From an uncultured archaeon (lineage in GTDB: Archaea; Thermoproteota; Nitrososphaeria; Nitrososphaerales; Gagatemarchaeaceae), in assembly GCA_963817525.1 (NCBI GenBank), contig CAWFOU010000007.1:224001-288000 (forward strand): 64,000 nt of DNA. The letters are read 5' to 3'. The notes beneath the pieces are model-generated. The model was not told the DNA's origin, did no database searches, and saw nothing but the letters and a program-made list of their open reading frames with translations. Position numbers and translations under genes: made by a program. How positions within the stretch are numbered: position 1 is the stretch's first letter; each line of letters begins with the position of its first letter. This document shows positions 44,501 to 48,122 of the stretch, in pieces.

Positions 44501-45399
44501 CTACTTTCCCGACGCGCTCTTGCTCGAGGACGGGGAGGCCCAGTCGTAGAACCCTTTCCCGGACTTTCTTCCTAGAAGCCCAGCCCTGACCATCTGCTTG
44601 ACGAGGGGGCTTGGACGATATTTGGAGTCCTCGAACTCCTGCATGAACACCTCAGAGATCCCAAGGCCGTGTCGAGGCCGACGAAGTCGAGGAGCTTCGA
44701 GGGCCCCATCGGCCAGTTGAGACCCATGGTCACGGCCTTGTCGATGTCCTCCGGGTCCGCCACCCCCTCGCTCACGAGGAGAGAGGCCTCGGTGAGGGCG
44801 GGGAGGAGTATCCTGTTGACTATGAAGCCTGGCGAGTCCTTCTTGCAGAGGACGGTCTCCTTTCCCATCTGCTTCGCGGCGACCCTGATCGACTCTACGG
44901 TGGAGTCGGAGGTCTTGGCGCCTCGGATGACCTCGACGAGCGGCATGAGCTGCGGGGGGTTGAAGAAGTGCATCCCAGCGACGTTCTCGGGGTTCTTGGT
45001 CGCGGAGGCGAGGAGCGTGATGCTGATCGAGGAGGTGTTAGAGGCGAGTATCGCGCCCGCGGGGAGGTGCTCGGAGATCTTCCGATAGAGGTCGAGTTTG
45101 AGCTTCGGGTCCTCCGATGCCGCCTCGATGACCAGCTGCGACTTTTCGACGGCGGCCTTGAGGTCAAGAGCCGGGTGGATCCTGGCGAGGATGTCGTCGG
45201 ATTTCTTCTTGTCCATGCCACCCTTCGCGACGAACTTCGCGAGGCTGTCCCTGATCATGGACATCCCCCTGTCTACGAACTCCTGCTTGACGTCGAGCAG
45301 GGTGACGTCGTACCCGGCGGTCTGGGCGCACACCTGCGCTATGCCGTGCCCCATCAAGCCCGCGCCGATCACGGTCACCCTCTTGATTTCGGGAGCCAT
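44501..45399 (-). CDS. 3-hydroxyacyl/butyryl-CoA dehydrogenase, frameshift near 44661
   Basis: [30 protein letters not shown]; tail GRKSGKGFY in the shifted frame. Confidence 0.93.
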
Positions 45400-45483: not shown

Positions 45484-45600
45484 GCGGGGGTAGCAGAGTG
45501 GTCCGTCTAACAGACCCACAATAATGCGCGGGCCTTGAGTCTCACCAGAGACAGCCTGTGACCCATCCGGGTCTCGTGGGTTCGAATCCTACCCCCCGCG
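45484..45600 (+). tRNA. tRNA-Ser(UGA) with two introns (45504-45521 in the D-loop; 45540-45552 at 37/38)
   Basis: Acceptor GCGGGGG/CCCCCGC with G73; T arm GTGGG-TTCGAAT-CCTAC; variable stem GACCC/GGGTC; anticodon stem CGGGC/GCCTG; loop CT-TGA-G^A; ATAAAA about 30 bp upstream. Confidence 0.88.
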
Positions 45601-45606
45601 CTCAAG

Positions 45607-46398
45607 TCAATATCTACCGAGAGCTGTAGGCCTTAGTGCCGCCTGTAGCCGTTCTTGTTTCCTCTTTATGGCGAAACCCACTAGTCGATTGAACTCCGAC
45701 AAAGATGTCGTCCTTACGTAAACTTCGTAACAATCGCGCCGTCTCAGGTAAGTCCTCCCTCTGTTTGAGATTTCCGAGCCTGCTTCTTTTTGGAGGTGCG
45801 GGCCCGTTGTTCCAATTCCCAGGGACGACAAGAGTCGGCGCACATATCTCAGCAAAGGGAGATTGGAATTCCAGCATGTGAGCTTTCTCCCCGTGATGCT
45901 TCCTTCGGAGTCGAAGAAACCTCTTAGGAATCTTCCCATGCAGTCGGGACAATGTTTGATGAATAGTTTGAATCTCTTCCAATCTCTATTTAGAAACTCG
46001 TAAAGGAGTACGCTCCTCGCTTCGATGGAAAAATCCCCTCGCCTCTTGTCAAACCATGGCGTGTGCGTCCTAGTCCCGAGTATCTTTGACAAGCAGCGAT
46101 CAAACTCCATGACGAAGTCCAAGTCTATTGCCGATAGCCGTATCCTTCGATTGTAGCCCTTCCTTGTTATTGAGCCGTCCCCTAGCTCGACTCCAATCAC
46201 GTAGGCAAGCTCTGGGCTAGGCTCTGGAGAGAAGTAGTTCGCACTTCCAAGAGGGCTGTGGATCTCTCTGAGCCATTCCGAGATTTGTCCTTTGGATGTT
46301 TTGAAGCCAGTCTCCCGCAGCAGGGTCTCGGCTATCTTGTTGTAGCTCATTCCGTCGGCTCTCAGTTCTTTGGCCCGCTCATTCGCACGGACTCTCAT
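45607..46398 (-). mobile_element. free-standing LAGLIDADG homing endonuclease gene (N-terminal HTH plus two motifs)
   Basis: GMSYNKIAE HTH; LAYVIGVELGDGS and FLRGFFDSEGS; visibly lower GC than the flanks. Confidence 0.88.
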
Positions 46399-46535
46399 TG
46401 CTAGAGGATGGTAGGACCTCGGCTCAGGGCACTTACTCGGAGTTCGCACTCAACACGAGTGCTAGTCCGTATTTAACGGCCACTCTCCCGCGGCGAAGTC
46501 AGATAAACCCCGGAGACCCTGAGAGTTGTCTACCA

Positions 46536-47687
46536 TTGAAGTTCCTGGTCATAGGAGGGGGGATAAGCGGGCTCTTTCTGTCGTACTACCTCCTCGAGGC
46601 GGGGGACGAGGTCGTCGTCGCGGACGCCCCCAAGGGGCCCGTCAGGACCTCCGCCTACAACGCGGGCCAGCTCTCGACCCGCCCCTCGTTCACGGACATC
46701 TACGCCCCCTCCGAGATAGTGCGCATCTCCGCGCGCGAAAGGCGGCTCAACCGCGGGTGGTTCGCGCTCGCGCGCAAGCAGAACCGCGAGAGATATGAGG
46801 AAATTGCGTCCGCCCTCGCGGAGCGGAGCCTCGCGCTATACGGCAAGTTCTTCGCGAAGGAGAGGGCCAAGGTCGACCTGACGGCAGAGGTGCTGGAGCT
46901 GCACTCGAAGCTGCGGAGCGAAAGCAGCCCCGAGCCCGGGGCGCGCTTCCTGGGCCCGAGCGAGCTCGCGGACGTGGGATACAAGGGCTTCGAGGGAGGA
47001 TGGCTCATTGAGGAAAAGTCCCTCCATTCAAGGAAGCTGCTCGACCACCTGACGTCGAGGATAGCCGAGATGGGGGGCAGGGCAGTCGAGGGCGACGTGC
47101 GCCTAAAGAGGAGTGGATCGCGCATCGCGCGGGCCGTCATCGAGGGCGAGGGATTGGTGGCCGACGCCTACGTCGTGGCGGCTGGCTCGTGGAGCCGGGA
47201 GGTCTGCGCGCCCCTCCGATACGACCCGATGGTCATCCCGGCGAGAGGCCTGGTCCTGTTCTACCGGACATGGGGGGAGAGAGCGGTGGACTATCCGGCG
47301 CACTACGAGGACGAGGGGGTGACCGTGACGCAGCACGATAGAGACACCGTCCGCTTCACCAGCTTCTTCGAGCTCGTCGGCTTCAACCCGCGATTCGGCC
47401 GGGCCAGGACTGACTGGCTCTTCGAGACCGTGACCTCGCATTTTTCCAGGCAGACGAAGCTCGAGTCCAACGAGGTCGGGGTGGGCTACCGCCCTTCGAC
47501 CCCCGACCAGCTCCCGGTGATGGGGCGGATCCCCCGCTGTGAGAACGGGTACATCCTTACTGGTTCGACGAGGAAGGGGATGGCCCTCGCTCCGGTCCTG
47601 AGCCAGCTGTTAATGGGCATCATGCTCGAGTCGGGCAAGAAGGACGACCCCCTTCTCCGGGCCATGGACCCCGCGAGGTTCGCGTGA
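46536..47687 (+). CDS. FAD-dependent oxidoreductase (D-amino acid dehydrogenase-like)
   Basis: VIGGGISG, TSAYNAG, VVAAGSWS, GYRPSTPD.LP. Confidence 0.85.
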   Translation: MKFLVIGGGISGLFLSYYLLEAGDEVVVADAPKGPVRTSAYNAGQLSTRPSFTDIYAPSEIVRISARERRLNRGWFALARKQNRERYEEIASALAERSLALYGKFFAKERAKVDLTAEVLELHSKLRSESSPEPGARFLGPSELADVGYKGFEGGWLIEEKSLHSRKLLDHLTSRIAEMGGRAVEGDVRLKRSGSRIARAVIEGEGLVADAYVVAAGSWSREVCAPLRYDPMVIPARGLVLFYRTWGERAVDYPAHYEDEGVTVTQHDRDTVRFTSFFELVGFNPRFGRARTDWLFETVTSHFSRQTKLESNEVGVGYRPSTPDQLPVMGRIPRCENGYILTGSTRKGMALAPVLSQLLMGIMLESGKKDDPLLRAMDPARFA

Positions 47688-47738: not shown

Positions 47739-48122
47739 ATGGCCGGCGCCGACGATTTCATCGCCCTGATAGAGAGCATGGGGAGGCGGGTCTTCGTGAC
47801 CGACGACCTAGTCGACCTCCGACAGCTCGACCAGCCCAACGAGATCTACGTCCTCCAGATGCTGAGCGTCTCCACGGCCGCGGGAGGGAGGGGCGGCGGC
47901 ATGGGCGACAGGAAGGTCGTCAAGGTCTACCACTTCTCGTGCGGCCACGGGGAGTGCAAGAAGGTGGGCGAGGTCGAGGACGAGGGGAAGATCGAGAGCC
48001 TCGACCTGCCATACCACGCGACTGCGTTTCCCATCCTCCTGCCCGATGGGCGGGAGAAGCTGGTCTCCGGGGTCACCGACAAGTCTCTCACGGCCTCGTA
48101 CCTGGCCGCGCTGGGCGTATAG
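47739..48122 (+). CDS. hypothetical protein
   Basis: Coding-like ORF with TTTAA upstream. Confidence 0.7.
   Translation: MAGADDFIALIESMGRRVFVTDDLVDLRQLDQPNEIYVLQMLSVSTAAGGRGGGMGDRKVVKVYHFSCGHGECKKVGEVEDEGKIESLDLPYHATAFPILLPDGREKLVSGVTDKSLTASYLAALGV

Follow-up and report, generated by a model that had tools for sequence, protein, structure and literature searches.

What is an intact endonuclease gene doing at the very end of a tRNA gene? The familiar homes of LAGLIDADG endonucleases in archaea are rRNA introns and inteins; in the 64-kb stretch of archaeal chromosome analyzed here (the window), one such gene stands by itself, convergent with an intron-containing tRNA-Ser gene. A sequence-only reading of the locus had proposed a tRNA-targeting, free-standing homing element whose host allele is shielded by the small tRNA introns or, failing that, a domesticated regulator. 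We have taken the locus apart feature by feature, followed the gene through its relatives, and asked which of these readings the comparison favors.

The tRNA partner is tRNA-Ser(UGA), encoded on the plus strand at 45484..45600 with its discriminator G at 45600, and it is the single copy in its genome (G000) by pattern search. Both default ARAGORN on the 64-kb window and Rfam at gathering threshold on the same whole window returned 0 tRNAs; an RF00005 match to 45484-45600 (+) was found at 37.3 bits (E 1.5e-6) with two insertions, and ARAGORN calls the spliced exons (without 45504-45521 and 45540-45552) as tRNA-Ser(tga) of 86 nt. The first insertion, 21 nt in the Rfam alignment where 1 is expected, holds an 18-nt D-loop intron at 45504..45521 (plus strand, boundaries good to 1-2 nt) that folds into a small hairpin. 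The second is a 13-nt anticodon-loop intron at the canonical 37/38 position (45540..45552, plus strand), folding into a stem plus bulges. The D-loop intron is missing from the orthologous tRNA-Ser(UGA) genes of G006, G012, and G004, and the 37/38 intron from those of G001, G013, G022, G009, and G012; since each insertion is absent from some orthologs, both are real introns.

A spacer of 6 bp (45601..45606), read from the sequence, separates the discriminator from the stop codon (45607-45609) of the endonuclease gene, which occupies 45607..46449 on the minus strand as an intact ORF. The tail-to-tail docking that had been noticed by eye is thus borne out by the sequence, Rfam, and ARAGORN. The frame was correctly seen as open, at a length of about 263 aa (from ATG 46398); residues upstream of Met18 are conserved in relatives, which makes the 280-aa product from GTG 46449 likelier. 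Pfam LAGLIDADG_3 (PF14528) matches this protein in two stretches at 2.9e-15 (56.7 bits vs. a cut-off of 22.5), and the best match in a profile search of the PDB is I-DmoI (1.5e-9). An AlphaFold2 model (pLDDT 89.4) has the pseudo-dimeric alpha-beta LAGLIDADG fold, and its top Foldseek matches are again I-DmoI, with probability 1.00 and TM scores of 0.69-0.72 normalized to the target. In the translation, motif 1 spans residues 81-93 (46171..46209, minus strand) with the catalytic Asp91 in GDG, and motif 2 spans residues 174-184 (45898..45930, minus strand) with the catalytic Glu182 in SEG. G90, D91, D180, and E182 are invariant across 24 family members that are 37-65% identical. The proposed N-terminal HTH fared less evenly: the AlphaFold2 model contains a three-helix, HTH-like domain at residues 16-60 (46270..46404, minus strand; helices 16-31, 36-47, and 53-60), followed by an unstructured linker (residues 61-78), and the Pfam search of the window's endonuclease gave no significant HTH match, with Pfam HTH families recorded in 3 of 120 relatives among the matches listed. 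An NCBIfam search of the protein returned only a far sub-threshold intein-RtcB match, and the best non-self database match is only 66% identical.

The gene differs from its surroundings in composition and appears to carry its own promoter. Its GC content is 0.485-0.525 vs. 0.60-0.69 in the flanks, as the sequence-only reading had remarked, and 93 of 104 loci across the family likewise have a gene poorer in GC than its flanks (median difference -0.069). A TATA-like box lies on the minus strand at 46470..46476, 27 nt before GTG 46449, close enough that the mRNA is expected to be leaderless or nearly so. Inspection by eye places TAAATA-type boxes upstream of seven of the eight Ser-linked relatives shown (the script's own motif flagged two), other TATA-like boxes stand upstream of genes in other subfamilies, and a similar box is found within the inserted segment at the tRNA-Ser(GCU)/hisI locus. 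We considered whether the box is instead the promoter of the oxidoreductase gene on the right and set this aside; the occurrence of the same box type inside inserts elsewhere and before many relatives favors its assignment to the endonuclease gene, as first proposed, although it may serve both genes bidirectionally. A strain about 5% divergent, from another study, has the endonuclease gene in the corresponding position; of the 19 differences listed between the two copies, 11 are synonymous and 8 non-synonymous, a ratio similar to that of the neighboring oxidoreductase (10:7). Judged by these comparisons, the window's copy is intact, has a promoter of its own, and seems subject to purifying selection.

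No signature of an integrative island was seen in the neighborhood. To the left lies a 3-hydroxyacyl-CoA dehydrogenase gene (hbd; 44572..45399, minus strand; Pfam 3HCDH_N, 1.5e-63), a syntenic anchor that adjoins tRNA-Ser(UGA) in 12 of 13 pattern-found loci as well as in G014 and G021. To the right lies an FAD-dependent oxidoreductase gene (46539..47687, plus strand; Pfam DAO, 1.5e-37) that is variably present: it comes straight after the tRNA in G006, with a 67-bp spacer, sits behind a decayed endonuclease gene in G014, and is absent in G022 and G012. The tRNA 3' end has one match in the 64-kb window, namely itself, and we found no att-like direct repeat flanking the endonuclease gene. No integrase or transposase ORF was noticed by eye in the ORF list between 43000 and 49000, and Pfam searches of hbd, the DAO gene, and the ORF at 47739-48119 gave no recombinase family. 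The gene is free-standing, and the earlier remark that intein, intron host, transposase, integrase, and duplicated tRNA end are all missing holds at this resolution, the ORF list having been read by eye.

Whether the docking is a coincidence can be judged from the relatives, and the count of homologs that abut tRNA 3' ends, which had been suggested as a check, came out positive. Standard tools miss such multi-intron tRNA genes (an Rfam run on 14 family loci together recovered one tRNA), so tRNA calls at family loci were made with ARAGORN -i and a heuristic scan of our own, based on T-arm and acceptor pairing, with the other side of each gene as the control; a rigid regular-expression census of tRNAs missed most known cases and was discarded. 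In its own 2.8-Mb genome, all three copies of the family are tail-to-tail with a tRNA gene, no more than about 110 nt past its 3' end, and our own rough arithmetic puts the chance of tRNA docking at about 1e-3 per copy. The genus and two family genomes contributed 49 loci, with a convergent tRNA in 38 of the 44 assessable (34 by scan, four by eye). Other archaeal species contributed 80 loci, with a convergent tRNA in 57 of 75 assessable by scan and in six more by eye, vs. 0 (convergent) and 3 (co-oriented) of 73 on the upstream side of the gene in the same scan. The gap from stop codon to discriminator has a median of 37 nt and is at most 100 nt in 73 of 75 cases family-wide. Small subfamilies dock elsewhere, at the 3' end of a thiolase-like gene or beside a tRNA 5' end. 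Docking is the rule of this family, not a coincidence. With 370 clusters at 50% identity scoring E <= 1e-30, the family is a large one, and its distribution is patchy: it was found in 19 of 22 genomes of the genus and in one of 16 other families of the order. No vector is evident: plasmid and phage records held no relatives, and viral contigs only three distant ones (26%).

The same loci exist in occupied, decayed, and empty forms. At Ser-UGA, between hbd and the FAD oxidoreductase gene, where a comparison of relatives had been called for, all three are present: 15 genomes comprise four intact genes, four decayed ones, and seven alleles without the endonuclease gene (for example, G000 occupied, G014 decayed, G006 empty). 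At the Ser-GCU/hisI locus, where the gene is intact in 2 of 21 cases, the discriminator and the hisI stop are 4-7 bp apart at four empty sites, and four occupied ones hold inserts of 827-1007 bp. The Cys locus is intact in 8 of 19 genomes, decayed in eight, and without the gene in three. In-frame stops, truncations, and remnants of 50-85 aa are seen at all three main loci, as expected of a homing endonuclease gene that invades, degenerates, and is lost; some "decayed" calls consist of a single frameshift only, and since frameshifts also occur in rpoB of several such assemblies, some of the apparent decay may stem from assembly errors. No interruption was seen in the Tyr-linked subfamily in any of its seven loci. 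Four soil runs, available as contigs at low depth, contained the occupied form alone and no joint skipping the endonuclease gene; the single contig joint listed (44976 to 45350, run X6) falls inside hbd and is of low likeness. Global alignment of occupied and empty Ser-UGA loci proved misleading and was replaced by local alignment, in which similarity picks up again no earlier than about 7 nt ahead of the oxidoreductase start; this puts the right boundary of the insert within 46450-46529, with no base-exact placement. A G3-C70 acceptor-stem variant (G000, G014, G022) was considered as a mark of immunity and dropped, as it showed by eye no consistent link to Ser-GCU occupancy.

The phylogeny follows the targets. 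Clades of the endonuclease tree correspond to tRNA identity, with all Ser isoacceptor lineages in one clade (support 0.98) and Arg in another (1.0). Each lineage in the genus keeps to a single tRNA locus (Ser-UGA, Ser-GCU, Cys-GCA, or Tyr-GUA), and the lineages evolve fast and often decay and vanish. Endonuclease identity falls together with that of RpoB (63-83% where RpoB is ~98% identical, 38-59% where it is ~91-92%) with no outlier pair, a co-divergence that does not point to any transfer among the species sampled; inheritance within the genus thus appears to have been mostly vertical. Other scales look different. Single Caldarchaeales assemblies hold paralogs 75-83% identical at Ser, Pro, Tyr, Thr, and Asn tRNAs, and in one such assembly, with five paralogs behind five different tRNAs, the shared element end starts at +1 past the discriminator in four of five copies, the fifth differing in the first two bases. 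An initiator-tRNA-linked clade spans one Archaeoglobaceae and one Thermococcus assembly. Together, these sequence relationships point to mobility at scales other than the genus.

We therefore favor, at a probability of roughly 0.6, the view that the ORF and its many archaeal relatives form one large family of free-standing genes for I-DmoI-like LAGLIDADG enzymes with an extra N-terminal HTH-like domain, that these genes lie convergent at tRNA 3' ends, and that they act as selfish homing elements specific for those ends. The depressed GC, the TATA-like boxes, and the patchy distribution are marks typical of selfish genes. The comparisons showed the anatomy of the locus, the fold, the conserved catalytic residues, the docking, the three allele states, junctions exact to the base in one genome, and a phylogeny that tracks the targets; cleavage, the target position, and homing itself are predictions. 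In such a cycle, the protein would recognize the DNA of its own tRNA gene's 3' part (the T-arm and acceptor strand) together with the junction past the discriminator. Element-less alleles would be cut, and the element would then be copied in through double-strand-break repair; its insertion would split the target site and so render the carrier immune. New targets would arise by small steps between similar tRNA genes. The proposal of a tRNA-targeting, free-standing homing element is thus supported in part, by the free-standing state, the retained catalytic motifs, and the tRNA docking, and loses one part, the protection by introns.

That lost part belongs to a fuller alternative, collaborative homing, in which the enzyme cuts intron-less tRNA alleles at the intron site, while the BHB introns, by interrupting that site, shield the carrier and undergo co-conversion together with the gene. 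A free-standing endonuclease gene adjoining an intron-containing gene is what cyanophage psbA presents as an instance of collaborative homing, and some observations here agree with it: the D-loop intron is present in seven of eight occupied or decayed Ser-UGA alleles, three alleles lacking it (G006, G012, and G004) never carry the endonuclease gene, and T-loop introns lie near the endonuclease gene in about 15 linked tRNAs, by eye. Collaborative homing, however, needs the intron, and here intact family genes adjoin intron-less tRNA-Cys in four genomes; all six intron-less tRNA-Cys alleles carry the endonuclease gene or a remnant, and in the wider set, 22 of 57 linked tRNAs are without an intron, as judged by length. 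The D-loop intron is also present in four of seven empty Ser-UGA alleles, and it is missing in G014, where the gene is decayed. In the window's own genome, introns occur in three of three linked tRNAs and in about 9 of the 25 unlinked tRNAs detected, a background against which the linked ones show no enrichment and are uninformative. The idea that small introns shield the host allele does not hold up against these cases, and we regard collaborative homing as very unlikely. A host function is a stronger competitor, if still an improbable one: the protein would have been domesticated for a task tied to the neighboring tRNA gene (regulation, 3'-end formation, or protection of the locus) and kept by host selection. 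Co-divergence with RpoB within the genus, the synonymous excess shared with the oxidoreductase, and the uninterrupted Tyr-linked subfamily are all compatible with such a role, and purifying selection with long vertical persistence fits a host function equally well. There is also a precedent in WhiA (DUF199), a bacterial regulator combining LAGLIDADG-type domains with an HTH, whose structure 3hyi is among the fold matches. WhiA, however, has lost its catalytic acids and bears its HTH at the C-terminus, whereas here both acids are invariant, the HTH-like domain is N-terminal, and members often decay or vanish. The domesticated-regulator reading is weakened by this frequent decay and loss at the Ser-UGA, Ser-GCU, and Cys loci, and against it also stand the recent multi-copy spread to different tRNAs inside single genomes, the depressed GC, the failure to find the family in 15 of 16 other families of the order, and the subfamily at a thiolase-like gene in place of a tRNA.

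The least probable account, and in our view a very unlikely one, is that of an inactive relic or a passenger of an integrase-type island using the tRNA as its attachment site. Such an origin is suggested by the general fact that tRNA 3' ends are classic integration sites, by the variable presence of the adjoining FAD-oxidoreductase gene, and by the many decayed relatives. It is at odds with the single tRNA 3' end in the window, the missing att-like repeat, and the ORF list in which no recombinase was noticed; the readable insert boundaries enclose ~0.83-1.0 kb, about the gene plus short flanks, and in the window's copy, the 280-aa frame is uninterrupted, every conserved residue is in place, and synonymous changes are in excess.

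Set beside known systems, the tRNA-end homing element that we favor shares parts with several. With the archaeal rRNA-intron enzymes I-DmoI and I-Tsp061I, it has in common a monomeric two-motif LAGLIDADG fold, both catalytic acids, and an archaeal host; I-DmoI, however, sits in an rRNA BHB intron, whereas the window's gene stands free of one, at a tRNA 3' end, and its product, only about 20% identical to I-DmoI, has an extra N-terminal HTH-like domain plus linker of ~78 residues. The free-standing endonucleases of T-even phages offer a likeness in arrangement. SegB, a GIY-YIG homing endonuclease in the tRNA gene cluster of T4 that homes during co-infection, is likewise encoded by an intergenic, promoter-bearing gene beside tRNA genes, and double-strand-break repair with co-conversion of flanks is the presumed route in both. 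The differences are that SegB is a GIY-YIG enzyme of a phage, whereas here LAGLIDADG genes reside in cellular archaeal chromosomes, one per specific tRNA and at an exact position past the discriminator. Integrase-type islands and viruses, and eukaryotic retrotransposons such as Ty3 and Dictyostelium TRE, also target tRNA genes and so use them as a conserved, safe landing place; they differ from the present family, which shows no recombinase, att duplication, or reverse transcriptase and whose elements are in essence one nuclease gene each. A full-text literature search, with most subscription journals outside its reach, found no description of the tRNA-docked arrangement.

A broader and more tentative proposal, which we consider possible but doubtful, is that the genes make up a class of their own among archaeal mobile elements, one directed at tRNA gene ends in general, in which the predicted HTH-like domain would anchor on T-arm DNA common to all tRNA genes, and the flexible linker would place the LAGLIDADG core to cut at the discriminator. 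If such generic anchoring were true, the gene could hop between tRNA genes, as in the Caldarchaeales genomes, and the enzymes would represent a natural library of tRNA-gene-specific meganucleases. It would also mean recurrent selection on tRNA genes, which could help explain why tRNA genes in these lineages bear an unusual load of small introns at diverse positions, the T-loop among them.

More generally, the natural pairs of occupied and empty alleles make the target sites guessable and directly testable, and such enzymes may be candidates for new long-site nucleases. A whole free-standing family that docks at the ends of tRNA genes in cellular chromosomes would be a new niche for homing elements and the protein-only equivalent of integrase islands and of retrotransposons that target tRNA genes. 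Such a family would also tie mobile nucleases, in a concrete and testable way, to the old debate on how disrupted tRNA genes arose and spread in archaea.

The endonuclease gene occupies an intact minus-strand open reading frame (45607-46449) that encodes 280 aa from a GTG at 46449, and its stop codon (45607-45609) lies six bases past G45600, the plus-strand discriminator base that ends the tRNA-Ser(UGA) gene, confirming the docking seen in the sequence-only reading. That reading was right about the intact frame and the six-base spacing, but its length of about 263 aa, also used by one database entry, gives way to the 280-aa form because conservation among relatives extends to the residues ahead of Met18. 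The frame matches Pfam LAGLIDADG_3 (2.9e-15), a profile built from 24 relatives finds I-DmoI at 1.5e-9 among solved structures, and I-DmoI is also the best fold match of the AlphaFold2 model (pLDDT 89.4); in fold and motifs the protein falls within the LAGLIDADG family, closest to the enzymes of archaeal introns, of which I-DmoI is one. As anticipated from the sequence, the model has N-terminal helices (three, residues 16-60), followed by an unstructured linker and a core with two LAGLIDADG helices ending in acidic residues, Asp91 and Glu182, both invariant across the 24 relatives. The low GC (0.485-0.525 vs 0.60-0.69 in the surroundings) and the gene's own TATA-like element (same strand as the gene, 27 nt 5' of its GTG) likewise stood, and neither a duplicated tRNA 3' end, whose absence had been claimed, nor an att-like repeat flanking the gene was found in the 64-kb window. 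Pfam identifies the neighbors as a 3-hydroxyacyl-CoA dehydrogenase gene (hbd) and a DAO-type FAD oxidoreductase gene (46539-47687).

The docking of this family behind tRNA genes is not due to chance. The window's own genome (G000; 2.8 Mb, 15 contigs) carries three family copies, all tail-to-tail with a tRNA gene that ends no more than about 110 nt away; the three tRNAs are Ser-UGA, Ser-GCU, and Cys-GCA, the last miscalled as Arg by ARAGORN. At 49 loci from 22 additional genomes in the genus plus two in the family, the scan placed a convergent tRNA at 34 and inspection by eye added four; four others lie behind a thiolase-like gene, two beside a co-oriented tRNA, and five are cut or unclear. A wider survey that took one genome from each prokaryote species turned up 171 relatives; the 80 loci retained belong to Nitrososphaerota including Ca. 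Gagatemarchaeum, Caldarchaeales, soil assemblies labelled Bathyarchaeota, one Archaeoglobaceae, and one Thermococcus assembly. Of the 75 loci with sufficient sequence downstream, a convergent tRNA directly follows the gene in 57, against none convergent and three co-oriented in 73 upstream controls, and six of the 18 misses have a convergent tRNA by eye, T-loop introns or a contig end having foiled the scan. With duplicates removed, stop and discriminator lie a median of 37 nt apart, and no more than 100 nt in 73 of 75 cases. The family exploits at least 15 tRNA identities (anticodons by script and by eye) and is sizeable, with 370 clusters at 50% identity (E <= 1e-30). The tRNA association proposed from the window is thus strongly supported by the homolog count.

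C-terminal extensions of some family database proteins read like an antisense tRNA T-arm, an independent hint of docking. One subfamily at ~30% identity (loci L025 in G002, L026 in G024, L060 in G007, and L063 in G006, all related assemblies) abuts, in tail-to-tail orientation, the extreme 3' end of a conserved gene of thiolase type rather than a tRNA, and another (L054, L058, L090, L130) lies just 5' of a co-oriented tRNA. A clade from euryarchaeal or unassigned assemblies is found behind an initiator-type tRNA-Met (L138, Archaeoglobaceae; L145, Thermococcus; L143; its member L146 is not assessable), and may reflect cross-phylum transfer or binning contamination. Weak LAGLIDADG matches (27-28% identity) within long open frames, 1129 and 1149 aa in length (L006, G000:C1:934808-935218; L028, G034) look like intein-borne endonucleases in a large host protein, distinct from the free-standing family.

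Occupied, decayed, and empty alleles coexist at syntenic loci. The hbd/tRNA-Ser(UGA) locus is recognizable in 15 genomes of the genus, where the endonuclease gene is intact in four (G000, G007, G001, G010), decayed in four (five stops in G014, a stop and a frame change in G021, remnants of 50-60 aa in G013 and G015), and undetectable in seven. The interval between hbd and the FAD oxidoreductase gene, singled out in the sequence-only reading for an allele comparison, is occupied in G000, decayed in G014, which keeps the window's order of hbd, tRNA, endonuclease gene, oxidoreductase, and next ORF, and empty in G006 (L035), where the oxidoreductase gene follows the tRNA after 67 bp with no endonuclease gene between. 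The oxidoreductase gene is itself variably present: G022 (L041) and G012 (L045) lack both genes, and in them the tRNA leads directly to the homolog of an ORF without a Pfam family, window ORF 47739-48122. Variability in the tRNA 3' flank therefore extends past the endonuclease gene.

Boundaries are sharpest at tRNA-Ser(GCU), where the convergent hisI (PRA-CH) stop lies 4-7 bp from the discriminator in four genomes, 827-1007 bp away in four that carry the endonuclease gene, and 116 and 379 bp away in two. Across 21 genomes, this locus is intact in two, decayed in nine, absent in nine, and not assessable in one; at tRNA-Cys (19 genomes), the counts are eight intact, eight decayed, and three absent. 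These states are interleaved on the RpoB tree, as with occupied G000 and its empty nearest neighbor G006 at Ser-UGA, a pairing with a support of only 0.61. In five assemblies of the genus (G009, G020, G022, G004, G012; loci L204-L211 and tabulated data), rpoB is interrupted by frameshifts or by a stop, which points to indel errors there, and copies broken by a single frameshift, including the two other G000 copies, may be assembly errors; decay calls based on stops, truncations, and remnants are independent of this caveat.

The endonuclease tree splits by tRNA identity, with the lineages linked to the four Ser isoacceptors in one clade (support 0.98) and those linked to three Arg isoacceptors in another (1.0), as expected if new targets are reached by small steps between similar sequences. 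In Caldarchaeales, within-genome paralogs 75-83% identical sit at different tRNAs (Ser/Pro/Tyr in one assembly, Thr/Ser/Pro in another), and the five elements of one such assembly have in common a sequence that starts ~100 nt 5' of the ORF and closes with an AT-rich end; in four copies this end begins at the first base past the discriminator, and the fifth copy differs only in the first two bases. Combined with the empty sites of 4-7 bp, these +1 ends locate the insertion exactly where the tRNA gene stops. Tree, paralog spread, and shared ends point to a putative recognition of tRNA-gene DNA with insertion at the gene's end. The target site would span the 3' part of the tRNA and the junction; the enzyme would cut element-less alleles, repair would copy the endonuclease gene into the cut allele, and insertion would destroy the site, following standard homing logic. 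We speculate that the N-terminal domain and linker of the model touch DNA at an additional place, perhaps the T-arm. The AT-rich end just past the tRNA includes a T run on the tRNA strand (L096, L101, L128, L127, L086; one Caldarchaeales assembly), which could serve as a terminator for a tRNA severed from its native flank by the element; the window copy has no such T run.

The tRNA-Ser(UGA) gene (45484-45600, plus strand) matches the Rfam tRNA model end to end with two insertions (37.3 bits, E 1.5e-6). Excluding 18 nt in the D-loop (45504-45521) and 13 nt at the canonical 37/38 site (45540-45552) leaves joined exons that ARAGORN calls as an 86-nt tRNA-Ser(tga), and both insertions are real introns, since one or the other is missing from orthologous genes of related genomes. 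The idea that such introns shield the host allele found no support: four intact endonuclease genes sit beside intron-less tRNA-Cys, all six intron-less tRNA-Cys alleles have the gene or a remnant, 22 of 57 linked tRNAs in the wider set are intron-less by length, and the Ser-UGA D-loop intron, present in seven of eight occupied or decayed alleles, occurs yet also in four of seven empty ones. Introns are common among unlinked G000 tRNAs too. A weaker version is possible, in which recurrent nuclease pressure favors intron gain, for example of the T-loop introns found in about 15 linked tRNAs.

Neither default ARAGORN nor a whole-window Rfam run returned a tRNA over the 64 kb, and genome-wide only 27 G000 tRNAs reached the Rfam cut-off, with tRNA-Ser(GCU) (C7:848077-848195) missed; routine tools under-annotate the multi-intron tRNAs of this lineage, which are easily overlooked. 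ARAGORN -i proposes G000 tRNAs with 838-1694-nt 'introns' at C1:82453-83371, C1:825835-827385, and C7:177304-179094, which may be artefacts of the permissive setting; no endonuclease relative was found at these sites. In seven genomes (L039, G007; L047, G001; L043, G010; L035, G006; L045, G012; L040, G015; L046, G004), the 7-nt acceptor strand of tRNA-Ser(UGA) is duplicated, with copies 10 nt apart and ~16 extra bases before the D-arm, which suggests either an atypical leader or an intron immediately 3' of the acceptor strand. The seven alleles also have in common an upstream promoter-like region unlike that of the window allele.

At the window locus, several observations count against active homing, and the gene may instead serve the host. 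Its divergence follows that of RpoB within the genus with no outlier, its closest non-self protein is 66% identical, searches of plasmid and phage records found no relatives, and contigs from four soil runs hold only the occupied form; inheritance here is therefore mostly vertical, as a host function would have it. One soil run, from another study, contains a ~5% divergent strain with the gene at the same place, and 11 of the 19 listed differences from the window gene are synonymous, which shows constraint and is silent on whether host or element benefits. Frequent decay and loss, depressed GC at 93 of 104 loci, the invariance of the catalytic residues, recent spread to several copies elsewhere, and absence from 15 of the order's 16 other families all tip the balance toward a selfish element, which we favor at a probability of roughly 60% and for which we infer cleavage and homing.

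In lifestyle, such an element is akin to the free-standing endonucleases that T-even phages carry, and its closest analog is presumably SegB in the T4 tRNA cluster. Islands and retrotransposons that target tRNA genes share the landing place, but the window element shows neither a recombinase among the nearby ORFs, as judged by eye, nor att repeats. A full-text literature search yielded no account of archaeal LAGLIDADG genes docked on tRNA genes, and passages of PMC6125680 and PMC3082918 contain no mention of them. The single window locus thus opens onto what is apparently an undescribed, family-wide rule of docking on tRNA genes, with clean substrates for testing it directly available in nature.
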